Below, one piece after another: positions 1,860 through 26,944 of a stretch of DNA of 64,000 nucleotides. Location: NCBI GenBank assembly GCA_038874075.1, contig JAVZDD010000001.1, forward strand, positions 136,701-200,700, written 5' to 3'. Every line of letters begins with the position of its first letter. Position 1 is the stretch's first letter. The position numbers and the translations under genes were made by a program. Under the pieces are notes generated by a model that saw only the letters and a program-made list of their open reading frames with translations, was not told the origin of the DNA and searched no databases. The stretch comes from Candidatus Nanoarchaeia archaeon. Its GTDB lineage: Archaea; Nanobdellota; Nanobdellia; Jingweiarchaeales; Jingweiarchaeaceae.

Positions 1860-2590
1860 TCTTTTTTACCCTCCACGATGCCCAAGCTCTTCTTCTGTAT
1901 TTCACCAATCTTGTAATATGAAAGTTTTTTAAGTGCATCAAAACATGCAAATGCAAGATTTATCCTTGTCCTTGTTTCACCAAATGTTTTGCTCCATACA
2001 TCACTTATACCTGCAAGGGATAAAATTTTTTTCAATTCGTTGTGAACACAGAGACCTATGCCTTTCGGTGCTGGTAATAATTCAACTCTTACACTGCTAC
2101 ACCTGCCTTTTATTTTAAATGGTATCGAGTGCGCCTCTCCACAATTGCATTCCCAACTACCACATCCTCTCTTTATTTTTATCACATTCAATTTTGCATT
2201 TCTGATCGCTTTCTCTCTTGCTGGAACTGTTTCAGGCGAAGAACCTAAACCTATTCCAACATAACCATTTCTGTTTCCAACAACAGCCAGACAGACAAAT
2301 TTTATTCTGCTCCCTTCTGCTGTTTTTTTCTGTGTTTGTCTGAAAACTTTTCTCTGTCCGCCACCAAATTTTCCCTTACTCTGTCCTATTAGAACTAGAT
2401 CACTCTCAAGATTTGGAATCAGAAAATCAACAATCTCTGGTTCCCTAATCTTTATACCTTTATCAAGTATTTCATCTATGTCAGAAATCTTTCCTTCTTT
2501 TACCAATTTCCCTATCTTTGTCTTTGGTATCCATTCTTCTTTAGTTTCCTCTTTAGTTTCCTCTTTTTCCTCCAATTGTTCCTCATCCAT
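1856..2590 (-). CDS. rps5: 30S ribosomal protein uS5 with acidic N-terminal extension
   Basis: GGGQRKVFRQTQ...GYVGIGLG core of uS5; operon position. Confidence 0.9.
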   Translation of the reverse strand: MDEEQLEEKEETKEETKEEWIPKTKIGKLVKEGKISDIDEILDKGIKIREPEIVDFLIPNLESDLVLIGQSKGKFGGGQRKVFRQTQKKTAEGSRIKFVCLAVVGNRNGYVGIGLGSSPETVPAREKAIRNAKLNVIKIKRGCGSWECNCGEAHSIPFKIKGRCSSVRVELLPAPKGIGLCVHNELKKILSLAGISDVWSKTFGETRTRINLAFACFDALKKLSYYKIGEIQKKSLGIVEGKKE

Positions 2591-3155
2591 TTTTTACACC
2601 AAAACTATCAATTATTTTCTTCTTTACTTCCTCAAAATGGTTTTCGAAGTTCTCAACATCAAAATTTGATTTTTTGTACATTGAAAACTGATTTTTCATT
2701 TCTTTCTCTTTCAGGATTTTAAAATAATTTGAAATATGTTTACCTCTTATTCGATCCTCGCTTGGAAGTACTTCTTTGTCAAATGGAACATTTATGCCAG
2801 AATCAACGAAACCCTTTAAACAAGCATAAAGCGAAGAACCTTTTGTTGGAACATGCATTCCTATGTCAAGTATTGCTTCATTGATTTTGTTTCTGGCTCT
2901 TAATCCACATAAAAGACCTGTTAAATATGCTGCTGGAATATTATTGGGATGTGCCTTCCAACCAAATTTTTTCAGCTCTAATGAATTTGCGCTCGCAATT
3001 GTTCTATCCCCTTTCTCATCATAAATCACTACTTGGGAAATAATCGAGTTCAATTTTCTTCTAACCACTAATCTTGGCTTTCCAGAAAGTAGTAGTTTCA
3101 ATCTTTTCCTATAATTTGTCTTTTTTTCTCTCCTGCGTTTGTATGCCAATCTCAT
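2583..3155 (-). CDS. rpl18: 50S ribosomal protein uL18
   Basis: MRLAYKRRREKKTNYRKRLKLL...PRLVVRRK, the uL18 N-terminus; operon position. Confidence 0.9.
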   Translation of the reverse strand: MRLAYKRRREKKTNYRKRLKLLLSGKPRLVVRRKLNSIISQVVIYDEKGDRTIASANSLELKKFGWKAHPNNIPAAYLTGLLCGLRARNKINEAILDIGMHVPTKGSSLYACLKGFVDSGINVPFDKEVLPSEDRIRGKHISNYFKILKEKEMKNQFSMYKKSNFDVENFENHFEEVKKKIIDSFGVKNG

Positions 3156-4563: not shown

Positions 4564-4936
4564 TTAAAACACCACCTAATTTCTTGTTTTTTGCTTCCAG
4601 GTGTGTCATCATTCCTTTATTTGTTGATACAATGATGATACCAAAATCCTTTGCTGGTAAGTATCTTTTTTCAAACTTCTCAATTTCATCAATTGTGTAG
4701 GAAAATCTGGGTTTTATTGCGCAGCATTTGTTTATCCTTGCGATCAATTTAACTTTAAAAATTCCACCTCTGTTGTTCTCAATGAATTCATAATCACCAA
4801 TGTATCCGTGTTCCTTCATTATTCTAAGTACTTCTTTTATCTGTTTCGATGCTGGTTTGATAATGCATTCACTTTTACCAGTTTTCTCAGCATTCATTAT
4901 GATTGTTAATGCATCTGCAAGTGTGTCTGTTTTCAT
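4547..4936 (-). CDS. rps8: 30S ribosomal protein uS8
   Basis: [24 protein letters not shown]...GGVLIAYVY, the S8 signature. Confidence 0.9.
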
Positions 4937-4938
4937 TC

Positions 4939-5178
4939 TTACACCTCGTGCCCATATTTTTTAAAACCTATTTCCTTTGCAATCTCCCTGAAGCATTGTC
5001 TACATACATTCAATCCATATTTCCGAATGTGTGCTCCTCTCCTTCCACACCTAGTACATCTCCTCACATCCTTACCAAATTTCTTATCCTTTGGTTTGTT
5101 ATATTTTAAAAATCGCTGTAATTTAGCAGGCTTCCTTACTAATTGTTTCAATATCTTTTCATAACTTGAGCTCGTCAT
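4939..5178 (-). CDS. rps14: 30S ribosomal protein uS14, zinc-binding type
   Basis: [25 protein letters not shown], a CxxC...CxxC zinc ribbon. Confidence 0.9.
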
Positions 5179-5699
5179 TTTTGAATCACTTCTACCCCAA
5201 AATTTTTCTTAAGGAAATCAATTACTTCTTCCTTTTTTATCATGTGTTTTTTTGATATTTTTCCACTCATTCTCTTTCTTTTTATCCTGAAACCAGGTCG
5301 CTCGAATGTAATACAAACACTTAGACCAATAATTCCTATGTTTGGATCATACTTAACCCCGGGTATGTGAATGTACTCTTCTATTCCAAATGAGAGATTT
5401 GCTCTCTCATCAAACTTTGAAATTTCTATTTTATTGTCAACTGCTTTAAATAATTTTTTGAGTATCTCAAATGCCTCTTGTTTTCTCAAAGTAACTTTGG
5501 CACCTATTTCAAGACCTTCTCGAATGTTGAATTCTGGAATTCTCCTCTTCGCTTTTGTTTTGATCGCTTTTTTACCTGTAATCATCTCTAACAGTTTTAC
5601 TGCTTTCTCCAACTTCTCTCCTGGTTCTCCGACACCAATATTCAATGTCACTTTTTCTATTCTTATTTCCCTCATTGGATTTTCATTCAATGTATTCAC
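5175..5699 (-). CDS. rpl5: 50S ribosomal protein uL5
   Basis: [17 protein letters not shown]...; operon position. Confidence 0.9.
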
Positions 5700-12712: not shown

Positions 12713-12979
12713 GCATTACACCGCAATTTTTTAAATACCACTATGTTTTTAAATATTTCTATCCCAGCCGCAGAATTCCGATCAGGTTGCGTATATTAAT
12801 AAATTTTGGGTAATTTAAAAAGTTTTTCTTTTTATCATAGTTATCATTTGATAAATACAAACCCATAATCTTTTTATAGTAGTAAATAATTACGAATAGT
12901 AAAATGAAGAAATGGGTAGCTCATCTTGAGTTTCTATTTATAGCTACGATTCAGATATCTAAAAATTCTGGGGATAAAA
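12713..12979. promoter_or_regulatory. AT-rich divergent intergenic region between rpl3 (minus) and the 706-aa ORF (plus); presumed promoters with several TATA-like TTTAAATA / TTTAAAAA boxes
   Basis: 267-bp non-coding gap upstream of two divergently oriented operons. TATA-like elements are read by eye only. Confidence 0.4.
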
Positions 12980-15100
12980 ATGAAAAATAAAATCACTCTT
13001 GTGGGTCTGGGTGAGCTCGGTCTAGGCACAAAATATGGCTATCCTGAAGCGATAACGGGATTAACACATGTATTGAAAAATGAAGATATTGACGCAATAA
13101 TTATCACTGGTGGCTTATTGCCGAGGGTTCCAAGGGTTGCAAGTAAGAGAAATTCTCAATACCTAGATACGCTTGCATCAGATGAGATAGATTCTATCCA
13201 AAAAGCTTCGATTGAAAGTAAAAAAATAATTGAACCGTTAAAAAATGTCACAAAGAAAGCAAAATGGTATTATGCGTGTGGTGAAGAGGATAGAGGAAAT
13301 CTTGAAGAGCTAGTTGATGTTAGAATTGCTGAAGCATTGGACTTACCAACAATTGTTGAAAATTTGAAAACTAAAATTGCAACATTTAGTGAGCAATTAA
13401 AATCAAAAAAGAGGGAACTTGAACTTCTAAGAGAAGAATTTGAAAAATTTGGTAAGAATAATCATGATAAAAATTATTTAAGTGAATATAGGAAAAGACG
13501 GAGGGAAATAGAGAACGAAATAAAAAGAATCGATACTGAACTTAGGGAAGATGAAGCAAATCTCGTTCAGAGACAAGAGGCATTGAAGAAGTATGGTTTC
13601 ATTAAATTTACTGGACGTTATCCACTAAAAAAAGAGGAACGTGATTTATTCTTAGAAGAGGCAAAAAGAGAGTATAAAGAATTGATCTTTCATAGCATTG
13701 GTCATGATGCAAATATAATTTTACCTGATTCGGAAGCAAATATTAAAGTAAAGGGAATGGAAATTAAAGTTGCGCACAATTCTAACAGAAAATCAGACGT
13801 ACCCTTACAGGTTGGGATACAAAGAAGGGTAATGAAAAATAAATTTAAAAATGTTACAAAAGAAAATGTTCCAGAATTGGATATCGAGGGACATCATGCT
13901 GGTGGATTCAGGGTATACATCCAGCGAAAAAGAAGAAATGTTCCTGAGCAAGTCTTCTATGTTCAGCTACCAACACTTCATCACATTGGAAAACTTGAAG
14001 AAATGCTCGCAGAAGGAATTAATAATTGGGATGTTAAAAGACTTTATGAGGGATATAGCAGCGGTTATGCTTCTGGTGCAGTAATAATGAGAAAAAGAAA
14101 TGATGGTGTAAGAGAATTTGAATTCTTTTCGTCTGATGAATTGGCAAAAATAAAAGATACTGGAATCGAAAGTTTGAGAAACAAACCAATAAAGATAGAA
14201 GCGCTTGCTGATATGCACATAGGTTGTACGAATGAGCCATCACTTCCGAATTCAATGAGTAATTATGCATTGGTGGAAGCATACAAAAATTATCAAAGGA
14301 TTCATGGTTTACCAAATATTATCGTAGCGCTTGGGGATATGGTGCAAGCAGGACCATATCGTGGGGCTGAAAGTGAAAGTAGAGTGGAAATGACAAGATT
14401 CCAGCTTGAGCAAGAAAGAGCTAAAATAATGAAGAGTAATTTGAGTAACGAAGAAAAACTTAAGAAAATTGAAGAATTGGATCGAAGCTACTTGTCATAC
14501 ATACCAATCACGAACATTAGTGAGCAAAAGATGGAGTTGAGGGATAGGTGGATTAAGCCACATGTACATAAAGTACTTGACAATGGTGGAAAAGTGTTGC
14601 TCGTCAGCGGAGATCATTACAACAAAACACTTGGTGGAAAAGAAGACGAGGCAACTGAAATAGCAAATATGATTGATGAGAGATTTAGGGACAAAGTATA
14701 TGTGCTCAAAGGGAATGAGTTCGGAACCGGGAAAAAAGTAATAGACAATTTGAGAATTTACGCGCAGCATAAACCAATGTACTCAAATCAAGATGAAGTA
14801 ATTGGTGGGATGAAACACTTGATTAGAATAAATGAAGATTGCGACATTGCATTCTTTGCGAACTGGCACCATCCTGGTTTTGGTTACATAAATAGCGCTA
14901 GTGGTGGTGTTCTAATCACTGCCTTACCTTCCTTCCAACCTGATAATCCTTATGTATCAGCGATCGGCAAGCAATCTTCAACAAATGGTTTTTACAACAT
15001 CTTCGTAAAACCCGGAAGGCAATGGTTTAAGATTGAAGTTGTGACAGATGATGCGCTATTAAATTATGTGCCTGGATTAGAAAAGAAGCCAAGAGTGTGA
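12980..15100 (+). CDS. Large uncharacterized protein (706 aa). The C-terminal half carries a divergent calcineurin-like metallophosphoesterase motif set; the N-terminal region contains a coiled coil.
   Basis: Motifs in order: LADMHIG (DxH), ALGDMVQAGPYRG (GDxxD..R), LLVSGDHY and LKGNEFG (GNH[DE]-like), MKHL, FANWHHPGFGY (GHxH-like). A K/E/R-rich coiled coil spans residues about 140-230. Separated by 4 nt from the next gene, so operonic. Confidence 0.45.
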   Translation: MKNKITLVGLGELGLGTKYGYPEAITGLTHVLKNEDIDAIIITGGLLPRVPRVASKRNSQYLDTLASDEIDSIQKASIESKKIIEPLKNVTKKAKWYYACGEEDRGNLEELVDVRIAEALDLPTIVENLKTKIATFSEQLKSKKRELELLREEFEKFGKNNHDKNYLSEYRKRRREIENEIKRIDTELREDEANLVQRQEALKKYGFIKFTGRYPLKKEERDLFLEEAKREYKELIFHSIGHDANIILPDSEANIKVKGMEIKVAHNSNRKSDVPLQVGIQRRVMKNKFKNVTKENVPELDIEGHHAGGFRVYIQRKRRNVPEQVFYVQLPTLHHIGKLEEMLAEGINNWDVKRLYEGYSSGYASGAVIMRKRNDGVREFEFFSSDELAKIKDTGIESLRNKPIKIEALADMHIGCTNEPSLPNSMSNYALVEAYKNYQRIHGLPNIIVALGDMVQAGPYRGAESESRVEMTRFQLEQERAKIMKSNLSNEEKLKKIEELDRSYLSYIPITNISEQKMELRDRWIKPHVHKVLDNGGKVLLVSGDHYNKTLGGKEDEATEIANMIDERFRDKVYVLKGNEFGTGKKVIDNLRIYAQHKPMYSNQDEVIGGMKHLIRINEDCDIAFFANWHHPGFGYINSASGGVLITALPSFQPDNPYVSAIGKQSSTNGFYNIFVKPGRQWFKIEVVTDDALLNYVPGLEKKPRV

Positions 15101-15104
15101 TTTA

Positions 15105-15989
15105 ATGGTAAGGATTGTGGGAACTATTCCTCGCTATCAAAAAGACGAAAATTGTAAGATTTGTGAAATAGAGCGAATTGTGGAAAAATCTAATGGAGAC
15201 ATTATCATATTACCTGAAGAATACTTCGGTGGTCCAAAAGTAGCCTATGAAAAGGAAAGCAGCTTGGTTGACAAACTTGAAAAAATTGCAAGAGAAAGAA
15301 ACGTTGGTTTAGTTGTTGGTGTGATAGAAAAGGAAGACGATAAGAAATACCAATCAATCTGGTTCTTTAATGAAAAGGGTAAATTTCTTGGCTCTGAAAA
15401 AAAGTACAACCTTGCTGGATACGAAATGGATCCTGATTTCTACAACCTAAGTGCAAATCCATCAAAATTCTTCGAGAGAGGTGCGTATGAGATTAAGGGC
15501 ACAAAAGGAACTGGGGTCATATGTTGGGAAGTTTATGACTTACATACAAAAGTTGCATGTGATAGTGCCAACATAGACTGGATTGCTAATTTGATAAAGT
15601 TCCCAATTAATTACTTTCCTGTGTATGAAAGGAGTGGGAATAATTATGTAATAAGACAATTGGTGAAATCGGAGGAAGAGTATGTAAGATGGATGGAAAA
15701 ATTACAGGAGCTCGCGAGTGATACATTGAGTTTGGTCATCGCTTCTTGCAACCCAACTTTTCCAGGATTGGAAAATTTGGTGCCAAAGGATGCAAAGGCA
15801 TTGGCGTGTATACTACATCCAAAAAATGGTTTAGTTAGGACTACAAATTTAGAAGGTATGTTCGTTAGTTTTGATTTTGAACCTGAGACGATAAGGAATA
15901 TTAGAGAGAGTAATGATCTAAATGCAAAAGCATGGAGAATAAGACACAAATATGATAACAGAAAGGTGAAAATAGAAAGATCAGGGTGA
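15105..15989 (+). CDS. Carbon-nitrogen hydrolase (nitrilase superfamily) protein
   Basis: Catalytic triad motifs in canonical order: IILPEEYF (Glu), SEKKYNL (Lys), GVICWEVYD (Cys-Trp-Glu). 294 aa. Confidence 0.65.
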   Translation: MVRIVGTIPRYQKDENCKICEIERIVEKSNGDIIILPEEYFGGPKVAYEKESSLVDKLEKIARERNVGLVVGVIEKEDDKKYQSIWFFNEKGKFLGSEKKYNLAGYEMDPDFYNLSANPSKFFERGAYEIKGTKGTGVICWEVYDLHTKVACDSANIDWIANLIKFPINYFPVYERSGNNYVIRQLVKSEEEYVRWMEKLQELASDTLSLVIASCNPTFPGLENLVPKDAKALACILHPKNGLVRTTNLEGMFVSFDFEPETIRNIRESNDLNAKAWRIRHKYDNRKVKIERSG

Positions 15990-16868
15990 AACGAGTTCTG
16001 ATAAAATTTCAATTAAATCTTTTTGTGTTTCAGCAACCCACTTATTCAATCCAAATTGTTTATTGTGATTTGAAATTTCTGGAATTACTTCCCAATCAAC
16101 TGCATGGTCAGGAACTACTTCATATTTTCCAGCTTTTGGCCAGATGTATTTGTGTATTCCAATTACTGGTTTTGAAGATGCAATTGTGTATCCTGTTTCT
16201 ATCCAAGGACCTATGTTGTTTTCATCATCGACCCTTGTGATTATGCCATCTGACATATCAATTAAGTCTAAGCAGTATCTTGCGCCTTTTTTACCTGGCT
16301 GCACTTTCTTGAAGTTTTCTTCTGGTAGTGCAGATAGATCATTGCAGTAATTTTCATAAGGATTGTAGTTATCCACTAATTTCTGTGGATTAATCGCATT
16401 GAAGGCATATCTTTTTAAGAATTCTTCCATCCATACAAAATAACCTGTTTTATCTGCAAATCTCACATCCCCAGCGATGTAGAAAGTTGGTGGACTCTGA
16501 AATCCTTGAAAATTTCTAAAATTTTTTTTACCTCTAAAGTTCTCAATTTTTTGAAGCGTATCACTAATTTGAGAAGTTTCAGTTATGGTTATTGGTAGAA
16601 CGCCATAGAAACCGTAGCTTGGTGCTTCTTTCTTTAAATTCCAAAATGCAATGATAGGTAAATTCAGGCCGAGCGCATAACCAACCCCAGTCCATATCTC
16701 TGGTGTTCTTTGGTCTCTTCTTACGAGAACGAAATCACTATCTTTTATTTTTGAAAGTGAAAATTCAAGATTTTTATTTAAAACCTCTACGTCATTCTTC
16801 TCTAGCTCTTCAAGAACATCATCGATTACGCTTTTTCTTTCGTTTATTGCTAAGATTGTAGTTTTCAT
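15981..16868 (-). CDS. Tandem nucleoside 2-deoxyribosyltransferase-like (NDT / SLOG-fold) protein; N-terminal copy degenerate
   Basis: C-terminal domain has FYIAGDV...DMSDGIITRVDDENNIGPWIETGYTIASSKPVIGI, matching the NDT signatures (hYhAG..; D..G..E.GYA) including the nucleophile Glu. The N-terminal domain has FVLVRRDQRTPEIWTGVGYALGLNLPIIAF with the Glu displaced. Confidence 0.6.
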   Translation of the reverse strand: MKTTILAINERKSVIDDVLEELEKNDVEVLNKNLEFSLSKIKDSDFVLVRRDQRTPEIWTGVGYALGLNLPIIAFWNLKKEAPSYGFYGVLPITITETSQISDTLQKIENFRGKKNFRNFQGFQSPPTFYIAGDVRFADKTGYFVWMEEFLKRYAFNAINPQKLVDNYNPYENYCNDLSALPEENFKKVQPGKKGARYCLDLIDMSDGIITRVDDENNIGPWIETGYTIASSKPVIGIHKYIWPKAGKYEVVPDHAVDWEVIPEISNHNKQFGLNKWVAETQKDLIEILSELVSP

Positions 16869-16914
16869 TCTTTATGCAAAATGAACAACGAATATAAATT
16901 TTACTACTTAAAAA

Positions 16915-17397
16915 TTAAAAAATAATCATATAAAAATCGACTTGTGAACTGTCCTTTCTCCTTTGACCAATTTCTAGGATTACACTTTCAAGATCTTTCT
17001 TTATTTCTTTTGGGATTTTTCTAAAGATGTTACACTCTGGCATTGAATTTTCTTTTCTAAATTCATTTTCTAAGATTTCGGCAAAAAAATGCGCGATCTT
17101 TGCTCTTTCTCCCTTCTTTTTCCAAATCAATTGCGCAAACGATGGATATTTATTATAAAATCTCGGATCCTGCGAATAGCATTCCGTTATCTCGTGGACA
17201 AGAATTGCGCACCTCTCTTTAAAATCTTTGATCATCGAAAATTTATTTGGATTTAATTCTACAATTGGTGGTGTTTTCCATGGATAAGAGGTGCACGCCT
17301 CACCTATTTTATTTTCTAAAAATAAAATTGGTATATCTAAGTTTGTGAAATTTTTAACATAATTTTTTGCTTCTTCTATTTCACTAGAGAATTTCAT
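16915..17397 (-). CDS. Hypothetical protein (160 aa), translationally coupled to the upstream Cas4-like gene by an ATGA overlap
   Basis: ORF only; no recognisable motif. The 4-nt overlap with 17394..18995 indicates an operon. Confidence 0.3.
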   Translation of the reverse strand: MKFSSEIEEAKNYVKNFTNLDIPILFLENKIGEACTSYPWKTPPIVELNPNKFSMIKDFKERCAILVHEITECYSQDPRFYNKYPSFAQLIWKKKGERAKIAHFFAEILENEFRKENSMPECNIFRKIPKEIKKDLESVILEIGQRRKDSSQVDFYMIIF

Positions 17398-18995
17398 TTT
17401 AGATCAAGCGGCTCAGTAATTTGAATGCTACTTCTTAAATTGGTGACGTGTTCAAACGGAAATCTTGAAGATGCTATTCCCACGCTTTGAATTAAACCTT
17501 TTTCTTTTAGTGCTTTCTCCCTAGCTTTGAAGATTTTTTTGAGAAATGTTGTGTATGGTGTACCACATTCCCTTAACTTTTGCATCATTTCTTCTTTAAA
17601 TTCGTTCAATGCTTTTTGCTCCTTACCCACCATCTCATGCTGTTTTTTTCTTCTATAAACAACTGTTCTTTTCCTGTTAATTGGATTGATTATTTCCTGC
17701 TCTCTGACCCATCCAAGATTCTTTGCAATTTTAAGTAAAGTTGAAATCGATGTTGGTGAAATATGTGTATAGGCGCTGATTGTGGAAATTGATCTCTCTT
17801 TATTGTCTTCAAGTCCAAGGAAAAGTATTGTAAAAAGTCTTAGTGTCGAATAGTCATTTGCTTGTCTTTCCATCCATCGTAATTCACTTTCAAGCCCAGT
17901 GATATTTTTTTCTTTTGTCCAATATCGCAATGGCTTAAACTCTTCCTTTATCCTGGCCTCTTTAAGTTTTGTATTTCCATTATCAATTGCGATTTGTGTA
18001 AGCATTCCTTCAATTCCAATCGTCCTTCTTCTACCAATTATATATTCTCCATTTTCATCTTTTCTTGCCACTATCTCTCCCCTTCTCTCAACTGCTTCTT
18101 CTAAGCAAGGTGAGCATCTCTCATAGTATTCAGAATACCTGCATTTCTTCATTCTTCCTGGTTTAACATTAAATTCTTCAATTATTTCTTTTGCTAAAAT
18201 TTCATTTTTTTTCTTCAAATTTGACATTAAATCAGAAATGAATTGGAATTCGTAGAGCTCCCCTTCGCTTGGTTCGTATTCTATCATCTTCTTCGGAAAG
18301 AAAAGATAAAGTAATGATTTCCTTGAATCACCAAGTTCCCTTGCAAGTATGATCTCACCTTGCATTTGTCGCTTGACGATTGAATCAAGGAAACCATCCA
18401 ATTTCATTTCGACAGGAACCGATTGACCTTCGTGAAATTCGATTTTATCCGGTCTTCCAATTAAATTTGTTTTCTTTGAAATTATCTCTGGATTCACCAT
18501 TGCTTTAACATAAATTCCATCAAATGCTTTCTTTGAATTTAAATTTGAATAGAAAATCTCATGAAATCGCTTTGCTTCAAATTCGGATTTTGTGTGAATA
18601 AAAATATTCTTTAGTTTATCTACTTGTTCATCATTTAAGAAAACAAATTTATTGTTGTAATTGAAAATGTCTTGTAGGTATGCATCAGCAATCTTACTCT
18701 TCGTGATTTCTCTGTTTATATCAATGCTATTTCCTCGTTCTATTTTTGAAATCAGATCTGATGCTAATTTTTTATCAACATTACAAGAAATACTGAACAA
18801 ATCATGAATGAGTTTTCCCCTCTCCATAGATCTATTTAAAATTGTTCTTCCACGATTGTATTTCCAGTGCCATTCTAATGGACAATGATCGAATGTAACA
18901 ACTTCGCTAATGGTGTTAAGCATCGATTCCATTTTATTGGATACAAGATTTGGTTTTTTAAGATTTACTCTATAGTAGTAATTATAGATTTTCAC
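17394..18995 (-). CDS. Cas4-like PD-(D/E)xK nuclease with Fe-S cysteine cluster, fused to a C-terminal winged helix-turn-helix domain
   Basis: N-terminal FDHCPLEWHWKY (Cas4 YxxCPRxxW-like). GKLIHDLF; GRPDKIEF...VPVEMKLDG (D...ExK). C-terminal CRYSEYYERCSPC (CxxxxxxxCxxC), completing a 4-Cys cluster. Residues about 390-450 RLFTILFLGLEDNKERSISTISAYTHISPTSISTLLKIAKNLGWV resemble a TrmB/MarR-like wHTH. Confidence 0.6.
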   Translation of the reverse strand: MKIYNYYYRVNLKKPNLVSNKMESMLNTISEVVTFDHCPLEWHWKYNRGRTILNRSMERGKLIHDLFSISCNVDKKLASDLISKIERGNSIDINREITKSKIADAYLQDIFNYNNKFVFLNDEQVDKLKNIFIHTKSEFEAKRFHEIFYSNLNSKKAFDGIYVKAMVNPEIISKKTNLIGRPDKIEFHEGQSVPVEMKLDGFLDSIVKRQMQGEIILARELGDSRKSLLYLFFPKKMIEYEPSEGELYEFQFISDLMSNLKKKNEILAKEIIEEFNVKPGRMKKCRYSEYYERCSPCLEEAVERRGEIVARKDENGEYIIGRRRTIGIEGMLTQIAIDNGNTKLKEARIKEEFKPLRYWTKEKNITGLESELRWMERQANDYSTLRLFTILFLGLEDNKERSISTISAYTHISPTSISTLLKIAKNLGWVREQEIINPINRKRTVVYRRKKQHEMVGKEQKALNEFKEEMMQKLRECGTPYTTFLKKIFKAREKALKEKGLIQSVGIASSRFPFEHVTNLRSSIQITEPLDLK

Positions 18996-19078: not shown

Positions 19079-19591
19079 ATGGATCTGTTTGTTGATAAGG
19101 AAAAAATAGTATGGATATTGTTTCTGTTTCTAATTTTTTTGAATAGTGTGGTAAAGCCAGAATTGGAGGAGCAAATAGAAAGAATGGAAATAATTAGGTT
19201 AAGTTTGGAGAAATCAGCTGAAGAAATGAGGCAAACAACAGAAAGTTTCGAGAAATCAATAAAGGAATTGCAAGAAACACAGAATAAAAGTGAAGATTGG
19301 ATTAGGTTGAGGAATTTGATGGAAATAACCAGTTCGTTGAATGTAAGTAGGTGTGAAGAAATCAAAGAAGAAGTTTTTCAGATACTTTGCGTTGGATACA
19401 TAGTGAATGAAACGCAAGATTACACAAAATGTTGGCAGATAAATGAGTCTTCAATTGTCTACAATAATAGTTTAAGGGATTGGTGTTTTTATTTTAGTGC
19501 GCTTGTTGAACTAAAAAATGCTTCACTATGTAATTATGTTAGTAATACTTCTCTTAGGCAAGAATGTTTTTTAAGATCAAGAAATATTTAA
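19079..19591 (+). CDS. Small secreted/membrane-anchored cysteine-rich protein (170 aa), unknown function
   Basis: N-terminal hydrophobic segment IVWILFLFLIFLNSVV, coiled-coil middle, eight Cys in the C-terminal half. Confidence 0.3.
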   Translation: MDLFVDKEKIVWILFLFLIFLNSVVKPELEEQIERMEIIRLSLEKSAEEMRQTTESFEKSIKELQETQNKSEDWIRLRNLMEITSSLNVSRCEEIKEEVFQILCVGYIVNETQDYTKCWQINESSIVYNNSLRDWCFYFSALVELKNASLCNYVSNTSLRQECFLRSRNI

Positions 19592-21097: not shown

Positions 21098-21886
21098 ATG
21101 AAAAGTATTGAGGGGAAACTAGTAAAAATTGAAGGCTTAGAGAACTTAATCGTTGTTGGAGACTTACATGGTGATTTTAATAGTTTTAAAAAAATTGTTG
21201 ATGAGTGGAGAAAACAAAAAGGTTACATCATTTTTCTTGGTGATTATGCAGACCGCGGTAGCAGTGGCTTAGAAATCATAGAAAGTCTGATGGAATTGAA
21301 GAAAGATAAGAACGTAATATTGCTCAAAGGGAATCATGAAGACTACGATAAGTATGGCCGACCTTCATTTTCACCATGTACTTTGATTCATGAAGTTGAG
21401 CAAAAAATGGGTGAATGGAAATCTTATTTTTCAAAAAAATTAGAACCATTCTTAAATGAATTGAACTTGGCTGCGATTGTAGATAAAATTTTATTTGTTC
21501 ATGGTGGTATAAGTTCAAGAATAAGAAGTATCGAAGATTTGAAGCATCCTAGTAAGCAAATAGAAGAAGATGTGATATGGAGTGATCCTAAAAGTGATTG
21601 TGGGAAAGGAGAATTCCCAAATTATAGAGGTGCTGGAGTCGAATTTGGTACAGACATTGTCCAAAAAGTGTTCAGTAAGTTGGGTGTGGATTTATTAATA
21701 AGAAGTCACCAACCCACGATTGCAAAGTATGGTCCATATTTTGCGTTAAATGACATGGTTATCATAATTTCCTCTACTGACATTTATGGGGGAATACCGC
21801 ATTACTTAAACATACCAGGAAACAAAATTGATGCAATTGCCAAAAATTCAAGAGAAATTTTGAAATACACAAAATTTTTACATTAA
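21098..21886 (+). CDS. PPP-family Ser/Thr phosphoprotein phosphatase / ApaH-like metallophosphoesterase
   Basis: GDLHGD, GDYADRG, GNHE motifs in canonical spacing. Confidence 0.8.
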   Translation: MKSIEGKLVKIEGLENLIVVGDLHGDFNSFKKIVDEWRKQKGYIIFLGDYADRGSSGLEIIESLMELKKDKNVILLKGNHEDYDKYGRPSFSPCTLIHEVEQKMGEWKSYFSKKLEPFLNELNLAAIVDKILFVHGGISSRIRSIEDLKHPSKQIEEDVIWSDPKSDCGKGEFPNYRGAGVEFGTDIVQKVFSKLGVDLLIRSHQPTIAKYGPYFALNDMVIIISSTDIYGGIPHYLNIPGNKIDAIAKNSREILKYTKFLH

Positions 21887-26840: not shown

Positions 26841-26944
26841 TGGGGCTGCAGGGATTTGAACCCTGGTTTTTGGGTTTCTTCATCTTTAAATCTGCGCTCC
26901 AGTCTGCTGGAGCCCAATGTCCTACCGTGCTAGACTACAGCCCC
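26841..26944 (-). tRNA. tRNA-Trp (anticodon CCA) with an about 31-nt intron at the canonical 37/38 position
   Basis: Reverse complement GGGGCUG..UUGGG-CUCCAG[CAGACUGGAGCGCAGAUUUAAAGAUGAAGAA]A-CCCAA..CAGGG-UUCAAAU-CCCUG-CAGCCCC-A. The intron 5-prime end (CUGGAG) pairs with the anticodon region (CUCCAG), as in BHB-type introns. Confidence 0.8.

Follow-up and report, generated by a model that had tools for sequence, protein, structure and literature searches.

Gene content of the block

Here we describe five adjoining genes in a DNA stretch of 64,000 nucleotides from the assembly of a Candidatus Nanoarchaeia archaeon (GCA_038874075.1, contig JAVZDD010000001.1, positions 136,701 to 200,700). The window denotes this whole stretch, and all coordinates refer to it. 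Candidatus Parvarchaeota is the lineage label used for the window and its nearest relatives. The plus strand codes for a giant protein of 706 residues with two metallophosphoesterase (MPE)-like copies in tandem (open reading frame, ORF, 12980-15100). After a gap of 4 nt it is followed by the ORF of a divergent CN hydrolase of the nitrilase superfamily (294 residues, 15105-15989). On the minus strand a Cas4-like nuclease is fused to a winged helix-turn-helix (wHTH) region (long ORF of 533 residues, 17394-18995, read from GTG 18995). An ATGA overlap joins this gene to that of a 160-residue protein (ORF 16915-17397, minus strand). The fifth ORF, also on the minus strand, encodes a tandem nucleoside deoxyribosyltransferase (NDT)-like protein of 295 residues (15981-16868). 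The NDT and CN-hydrolase genes are convergent and overlap by 9 nt.

A first-pass annotation, made from the sequence alone, had proposed these five ORFs, and their coordinates, the 4-nt gap and the ATGA overlap were all borne out. So were two tight gene pairs, giant MPE with CN hydrolase and nuclease-wHTH with the 160-residue protein. At one side the block borders on an L3-led ribosomal operon. The A/T-rich spacer of 267 nt between this divergent operon and the giant MPE gene (12713-12979, read directly from the sequence) is presumed to hold divergent promoters. At the other side are a 170-residue ORF, rtcB, a PPP-type phosphatase and archease. The block thus does lie between the ribosomal superoperon and rtcB, as had been stated, with the correction that the 170-residue ORF (19079-19591) intervenes before rtcB. 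In profile searches the five proteins proved to be uncharacterised members of named superfamilies. Nearly all earlier domain calls stood; CN_hydrolase, Nuc_deoxyrib_tr and PDDEXK_1 scored above the Pfam gathering threshold (GA).

The giant protein is a double metallophosphoesterase

The C-terminal MPE domain of the giant protein (aa 400-700, 14177-15079, plus strand) has ligand-capable residues at every metal-binding position. The N-terminal copy is degenerate and consists of two segments, aa 1-101 (12980-13282) and aa 241-398 (13700-14173), which flank a coiled-coil hairpin (aa 102-240, 13283-13699; all plus strand). Alignment of both N-terminal segments with the C-terminal copy by hhalign, using a 70-sequence alignment, gave 207 co-linear columns at an E-value of 1.8e-5, which points to an internal duplication. 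A duplicated MPE fold with the characteristic beta-sandwich was also displayed by the structure model (pLDDT 92), in which the helical hairpin, about 140 residues long, belongs to the N-terminal copy.

The two copies differ in their metal ligands. In the N-terminal copy these are replaced, with GELGLG for DxH, GG for GD and GEED for GNH. In the C-terminal copy D411, H413, H546, H597 and H630 were at least 90% conserved among 70 sequences, and G452 and D453 were conserved to at least 90% in a 13-sequence alignment with the family consensus GD. All five MPE metal-ligand motifs (DxH, GD, GNH[D/E], H and GHxH) were recognised in the C-terminal domain, with a conservative exchange, N/D or H/N, at two ligand positions of the window protein. 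Motif III reads GDH (G544-D545-H546) in the window versus GNH in the family, and motif V reads N-W-H (N628-x-H630) versus [H/D]-x-H.

Against Pfam Metallophos (PF00149) the giant protein scored 18 bits, i.e. under the cut-off of 21.5. The same model matched 9 of 47 family members at E≤0.01 (best 2.9e-6), and the family is covered by no Pfam family. With a profile built from three sequences, a full HMMER scan retrieved 91 representatives at E≤1e-3, of which 44 reached ≤1e-30. Their lengths are mostly 700-1000 residues, and the named members belong to Woesearchaeota, Nanoarchaeota, Nanoarchaeia and Parvarchaeota. A word-indexed homologue search found only 3 relatives of the 706-residue protein. 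A repeat that used a profile of 47 sequences brought no further relatives; words from the coiled coil had probably swamped the candidate list. A sequence search of the PDB returned no meaningful match, and a literature search on DPANN and metallophosphoesterase found nothing. The giant MPE represents an unannotated, DPANN-wide family, with a presumably inactive N-terminal copy that bears a coiled-coil arm and a C-terminal copy that is predicted to bind two metals.

The window protein (12980-15100) shares 31% identity with a homologue at locus L015 (1503-3881, E 1e-80) and about 21% with that of the phylogenetically nearer relative L006 (7368-9548, E about 1e-3). That it is closer to other DPANN than to the L006 copy suggests either very fast divergence or replacement by a paralogue or xenologue in one lineage.

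The CN hydrolase and the tandem NDT-like protein

The CN hydrolase scored 40 bits against PF00795 (GA 23.2). E38, K100, C140 and E142, i.e. the Glu-Lys-Cys triad and a second Glu, were invariant in five orthologues. Among solved structures NIT4, yeast Nit3 and N-carbamoylputrescine amidase come nearest (E 2e-5 to 5e-4). The likeness to nitrilase relatives in the PDB covers the N-terminal 100-150 residues (E 1e-5 to 1e-3), and about 120 C-terminal residues fall outside the Pfam match to the superfamily. No NCBIfam equivalog cut-off was reached that would place the protein in a specific branch (Lnt, AguB, NadE glutaminase, nitrilase). The best scores were 23.1 bits against a cut-off of 427, 22.1 against 410 and 19.1 against 133.

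In the NDT-like protein Nuc_deoxyrib_tr (PF05014) matched the C-terminal half only (33.2 bits, above GA). This domain (aa 119-295, 15981-16514, minus strand) is predicted to be active. It keeps the YIAGD loop and a DD...WIETGY motif, with E224 and D214/D215 conserved. Gathering score, catalytic Glu nucleophile and flavodoxin-like fold all place it in the NDT family. The first-pass annotation had called the protein a tandem, and this was confirmed. The N-terminal half (aa 1-118, 16515-16868, minus strand) aligned with the C-terminal half over 69 columns (hhalign E 5.6e-4), and phrog_7995, a phage family named 'nucleoside deoxyribosyltransferase', weakly matched aa 20-79 (4e-4). The N-terminal domain is degenerate; a Gly stands where the catalytic Glu is expected (WTGVGY versus WIETGY).

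NDT and Rcl enzymes are dimers in which active sites are shared between the subunits. By analogy, a tandem of an active and a dead copy probably forms an intramolecular pseudo-dimer of the NDT/Rcl type with one active site. From NDTs, Rcl/DNPH1 and MilB-type N-glycosidases the window protein differs by this tandem architecture with its catalytically dead N-terminal copy; transferase and hydrolase activities are indistinguishable from sequence. The PDB search yielded no sequence-level match to any solved structure. The word-indexed search found only four relatives, all on Parvarchaeota-like metagenome contigs.

The nuclease-wHTH fusion and its 160-residue partner

The nuclease domain (18096-18932, minus strand) scored 29.8 bits against PDDEXK_1 (PF12705; GA 22). 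All three orthologues share the GRPD...VEMK motif as well as C285, C294 and C297. For C38, conservation is seen in the window and in L004, where the N-terminus is available; the L008 sequence is cut at the N-terminus. The PD-(D/E)xK motif and four cluster cysteines are thus present, and binding of an Fe-S cluster is predicted. The C-terminal region (aa 320-533 of the long ORF, 17394-18038, minus strand) gave weak wHTH matches (F-112 4.7e-4, MarR_2 1.6e-3). In L006 this region exists as a free gene of 189 residues, which adjoins the giant MPE gene in divergent orientation (28-31% identity, E 1e-8 to 4e-10). The start codon needs revision. It had been set at GTG 18995, and the probable start is ATG 18932 (M22; 512 residues), a position supported by the gene call of NCBI, by where the L004 protein begins and by the A/T-rich, TATA-like stretch that is then left upstream. 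The GTG-initiated reading of 533 residues, with 18933-18995 in addition, is probably over-extended.

The likeness to Cas4/RecB-like nucleases consists in the PDDEXK_1 match, the D...ExK motif and the arrangement of one N-terminal and three C-terminal cysteines. The differences from Cas4 are a C-x8-C-x2-C spacing and the fusion to a wHTH region of about 210 residues. Cas4 models scored 21-22 bits (TIGR00372 equivalog 21.7 against a cut-off of 65). There was no tandem CRISPR array in the window and there were no cas genes among the called neighbours. The PDB sequence search with the fusion protein returned no meaningful match.

For the 160-residue protein profile searches of Pfam, NCBIfam, PADLOC and PHROG produced no significant family match. 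In four orthologues H68-E69-x-x-E72-C73 (HEIxEC), H103 and E107 are invariant, and three of the four weakly match PF18894 PhageMetallopep (best E 0.014). Possibly the protein is metallopeptidase-like; these signs are suggestive only. The nuclease-wHTH fusion and the 160-residue protein are best regarded as a module of their own, restricted to the clade, with a possible role in DNA processing or regulation.

Conservation of the block and its parts

In the close relatives L004, L005 and L008/L009 the five-gene order next to L3 is kept. L3 is about 80% identical there and the block proteins are 51-75% identical. Shared gene order at such a distance says little. The relative L006 (GC 44%) is further removed, with reference identities to the window of 56% for L3, 56% for L4, 58% for L2 and 74% for RtcB. 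NDT (57%) and CN hydrolase (50%) match the ribosomal proteins in this respect. Thus, both evolve like core genes. The giant MPE was about 21% identical (BLASTP E 3e-5).

All three genes are still located between L3 and RtcB in L006. The nuclease domain and the 160-residue gene are missing, and six other genes are inserted. From RtcB to L3 the interval contains genes for 173-residue, radical-SAM-like (339 residues) and 108-residue proteins, an operon of NDT with proteins of 97 and 323 residues, a converging series of giant MPE (726 residues), 137-residue protein, 90-residue protein and CN hydrolase, the free 189-residue gene and a gene for 136 residues. The converging series is on one strand with gaps of 48 and 4 nt and an overlap of 7 nt. 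The pairing of giant MPE and CN hydrolase is Parvarchaeota-specific and was held in both Parvarchaeota lineages examined. These losses and insertions, together with the differing degrees of conservation, show that the block contains units with different histories.

Two of the L006 genes carry cysteine motifs. The radical-SAM-like protein (2046-3065, minus strand; PF04055, E 6e-5) has a C-x11-C-x2-C motif. The 323-residue protein (4700-5671, plus strand), in a tight operon with the NDT gene, has an EndoIII-type C-x6-C-x2-C-x5-C motif and a weak Q_salvage match (E 0.015).

Seven giant-MPE loci in distant DPANN were inspected with flanks from about 1.5 kb (L015) to 10 kb, as set by the contig ends. 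Within these flanks tblastn with the other four window proteins had no match, which makes the giant MPE a DPANN family in its own right. The earlier proposal of one system whose five genes travel as a set is thus not supported: the order is present in near relatives only, is broken in L006 and is absent at the seven distant loci. The full HMMER search was run on the giant MPE, and NDT, CN hydrolase, 160-residue protein and nuclease-wHTH were searched by word-indexed and pattern scans of limited reach; for this reason the lack of wider co-occurrence is well shown only for the giant MPE.

The neighbours at the distant loci are diverse. In L010 the order is PAC2, giant MPE, ProRS, Mre11 and Rad50, with a dCTP deaminase nearby. 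In L011 NadA, NAD kinase and a NUDIX protein are downstream. The giant MPE gene of L012 has Trypsin_2 and a 248-residue ORF at one side and a 95-residue ORF and PAC2 at the other, that of L014 adjoins Trypsin_2, and that of L016 is situated between Trypsin_2 at one side and a 170-residue ORF and Peptidase_C14 at the other. In L015 a dCMP/cytidine deaminase is directly downstream, along with a bona fide Q_salvage gene. In L017 the neighbour is PmbA/TldD, and a cytidine deaminase is two genes downstream. Nucleotide-metabolism genes are thus near the giant MPE in four other lineages (L010, L011, L015 and L017). Some neighbours recur, namely Trypsin_2 protease in three of the loci, PAC2 in two and dCMP/cytidine deaminase in two; either function or inherited synteny could be the cause.

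The genes at the rtcB side of the block were also inspected. The 170-residue ORF (19079-19591, plus strand) has a hydrophobic N-terminal segment and a Cys-rich C-terminus and overlaps the 3' end of rtcB by 4 nt. tblastn detected no copy of it in L004-L006 or L008, and at its position next to RtcB in L006 is the unrelated 173-residue gene. Between rtcB and archease a PPP-type metallophosphatase of 262 residues is encoded (21098-21886, plus strand), which carries GDLHGD, GDYADRG and GNHE motifs and matches Pfam Metallophos. It is unrelated to the giant-MPE family. At 26841-26944 (minus strand) a 104-nt stretch matched the Rfam tRNA model with 59.7 bits, with no ARAGORN call. Probably this is a tRNA with an intron; the genes for RtcB ligase and archease, encoded nearby, would be in keeping with that. 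An Rtc-type RNA-repair operon comprising RtcB and the giant MPE was considered and rejected: in other lineages the giant MPE is not near RtcB.

The block is native in composition

The first-pass annotation had called the block an accessory island and had considered a nucleotide-signal-dependent conflict system. Neither proposal was supported. In GC, GC3 and synonymous codon usage the five genes all fell within the range of the 46 other ORFs of the window, with synonymous-codon distances of 0.07-0.17 versus 0.138 ± 0.034 for the rest. Around the block no significant flanking repeats were detected, no integrase was among the called genes, and the window contains no CRISPR-like array. Pattern scans of IMG/VR with all five genes, of GTDB genomes with NDT and CN hydrolase, and of JGI metagenomes with NDT and nuclease-wHTH found no relatives; such scans need near-exact motifs of 7-8 residues, so these negatives are weak. 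In phage records tblastn with NDT and nuclease-wHTH found nothing, and in plasmid records tblastn with giant MPE and CN hydrolase found only generic matches to the CN-hydrolase family. With native composition, without repeats, integrase or array and with no viral or plasmid relatives in these searches beyond generic CN hydrolases, the block looks native.

Positive signs of a defence function were sought with PADLOC-DB v2. NDT, CN hydrolase and the 160-residue protein had no match at E≤1. The nuclease matched only Cas4, weakly (E 3e-5), and the giant MPE only PbeC (E 0.021), within its coiled coil. As possible partners in defence no cyclase, TIR, reverse transcriptase or ATPase was present. With a weak Cas4 match as the only signal, with no signalling partners and with no hallmarks of mobile elements in a stretch of native composition, the conflict-system proposal has no positive evidence.

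A probably composite stretch with a possible role in nucleotide salvage

Gene structure, domain identity, conservation of catalytic residues, internal duplications, family distribution and gene neighbourhoods were observed here. We read the block as a vertically inherited, lineage-specific stretch of the Parvarchaeota chromosome with at least three units of different histories, neither mobile nor a single five-gene system. The first is the giant, single-chain double MPE, which is DPANN-wide and in Parvarchaeota only is predicted to be co-transcribed with a divergent amidase whose catalytic residues are intact. The second is the tandem NDT-like protein, in which the Glu predicted to act as nucleophile is retained by the C-terminal domain and the N-terminal domain appears to be a dead copy. 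The third is the clade-restricted pair of a small HExxE protein and a putative Cas4-like Fe-S nuclease fused to a wHTH region. That the block is composite and native and not a defence island we consider likely. Joined with a role in nucleotide salvage this makes our best overall explanation, which is tentative and falls a little short of an even chance.

What the proteins do to which substrates, whether they are physically or metabolically coupled, and the salvage role we infer. Units 1 and 2 may let an organism whose own biosynthesis is limited recover material derived from nucleic acids. In this scheme phosphodiester or phosphomonoester bonds would be cut by the phosphoesterase. The NDT would act on (deoxy)nucleosides or nucleotides, where it would cleave or exchange the N-glycosidic bond, and for the amidase the target of hydrolysis would be an amide or nitrile on a base or on a by-product. 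This is proposed because the catalytic machineries for phosphoester, N-glycosidic and C-N bonds are intact, because nucleotide-metabolism genes neighbour the giant MPE in the four other lineages, and because the operon partner of NDT in L006 has a nucleoside-glycosidase-like signature. For the Parvarchaeales restricted metabolic capabilities and a dependence on hosts have been described, and salvage pathways were highlighted in the sister order Jingweiarchaeales (PMC10134863). A salvage or modification module had been named as an option in the first-pass annotation. It has gained modest circumstantial support from the intact catalytic residues, the ribosomal-like conservation of NDT and CN hydrolase and the nucleotide-related neighbours; the coupling of all five genes has gained none. 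Taken by itself, the salvage mechanism is rather doubtful.

Several points weigh against the overall explanation. None of the five proteins has a known substrate. In other DPANN the giant MPE has mixed neighbours, among which genes for proteases and chaperone-like proteins are no less frequent than those for nucleotide enzymes, with Trypsin_2 in three loci, PAC2 in two, and TldD and a caspase-like peptidase once each. The case for salvage is weak on these two counts. That NDT, CN hydrolase and giant MPE have stayed between L3 and RtcB in L006 could simply reflect synteny by descent. A wider co-occurrence of NDT, CN hydrolase, 160-residue protein and nuclease-wHTH may exist beyond the reach of the searches. 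Lastly, NDT-like and nitrilase domains occur as effectors in some bacterial defence systems, i.e. retrons and UG/Abi reverse transcriptases.

The five genes may also be functionally unlinked. They would then be lineage-specific genes which share a variable stretch between the anchors L3 operon and rtcB, each serving in a different process. Between L3 and RtcB the window clade and L006 indeed do not have the same genes, as L006 has six in addition and has lost two, the giant MPE does without the other four and with mixed neighbours at seven distant loci, and there are three different regimes of conservation within the block. However, giant MPE and CN hydrolase share one orientation with tight spacing in two lineages whose L3 proteins are down to 56% identity, NDT and CN hydrolase have remained neighbours in both, and the ATGA overlap couples the nuclease-wHTH and 160-residue genes. 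We regard a complete lack of linkage as possible and, on balance, somewhat improbable.

Alternatively, the giant MPE might be an end-processing nuclease in replication, repair or uptake of nucleic acids, a single-chain pseudo-dimer analogous to Mre11/SbcD or PolD DP1. The coiled-coil arm would stand in for a Rad50-like partner, salvage would not be involved and the CN hydrolase would be an incidental neighbour. PolD DP1 is the nearest solved fold; the MPE fold is common to the giant protein, DP1 and the eukaryotic polymerase B-subunits at a sequence identity of about 11%. In DP1 an OB-fold precedes the MPE domain, whereas the model of the giant protein is MPE - coiled coil - MPE without a separate OB domain, with two MPE copies in one chain and the coiled coil as an insertion. 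Foldseek found no full-length structural match (TM-score normalised to the query ≤0.24), and a DP2-like gene was absent from the nine neighbourhoods looked at. In comparison with Mre11/SbcD the giant protein lacks the capping domain and an ABC ATPase partner; an ATPase adjoins it neither in the window nor at most loci. In Rad50/SbcC the coiled coil is in the partner protein, whereas here it is inserted into the protein's own dead MPE copy. We consider this alternative unlikely.

With no OB fold or capping domain, and with a canonical pair of Mre11 (417 residues) and Rad50 (785 residues) coexisting with a family member in L010, the giant MPE was rejected as an orthologue of PolD DP1 and of Mre11.

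A pathway of the 7-deazaguanine/queuosine type is a tentative option, suggested only by the Q_salvage match in L006 and the one true Q_salvage neighbour in L015; the window has no Q_salvage-type gene. Finally, that a defence or conflict system, either dependent on a nucleotide signal or targeting nucleic acids, is formed by the block or by its minus-strand half, with the NDT/SLOG-like protein as sensor or effector, the Cas4-like nuclease-wHTH as effector and the peptidase-like protein as regulator, with or without phosphoesterase and nitrilase, is highly improbable, since positive evidence is missing and the core-like conservation of NDT and CN hydrolase conflicts with it.

The analysis removes a tempting and unsupported label, 'new defence system'. 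Co-occurrence of NDT, nitrilase, MPE and Cas4-like domains alone is insufficient for this label, and here it met with separate distributions, native composition and, for two of the genes, core-gene rates of evolution. The most notable part of the block is the DPANN-wide, undescribed double phosphoesterase with its coiled-coil arm. The giant protein might define a DPANN-specific class, a single-chain pseudo-dimeric MPE with a Rad50-like coiled-coil arm, which in Parvarchaeota was recruited together with a dedicated amidase and a tandem NDT with one active site into a new route that harvests and re-tailors host-derived nucleic acid components. This is speculative and quite unlikely to hold in full. 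If true, it would reveal one step by which symbiotic archaea of very small size come by their nucleotides. DPANN archaea are described as metabolically restricted and dependent on hosts, and for the question of how they acquire and process nucleotides the conserved and confidently modelled double phosphoesterase of Woesearchaeota, Nanoarchaeota and Parvarchaeota is a concrete biochemical candidate. The NDT-like protein and the amidase, as conserved as ribosomal proteins, are likewise candidates for biochemical study.

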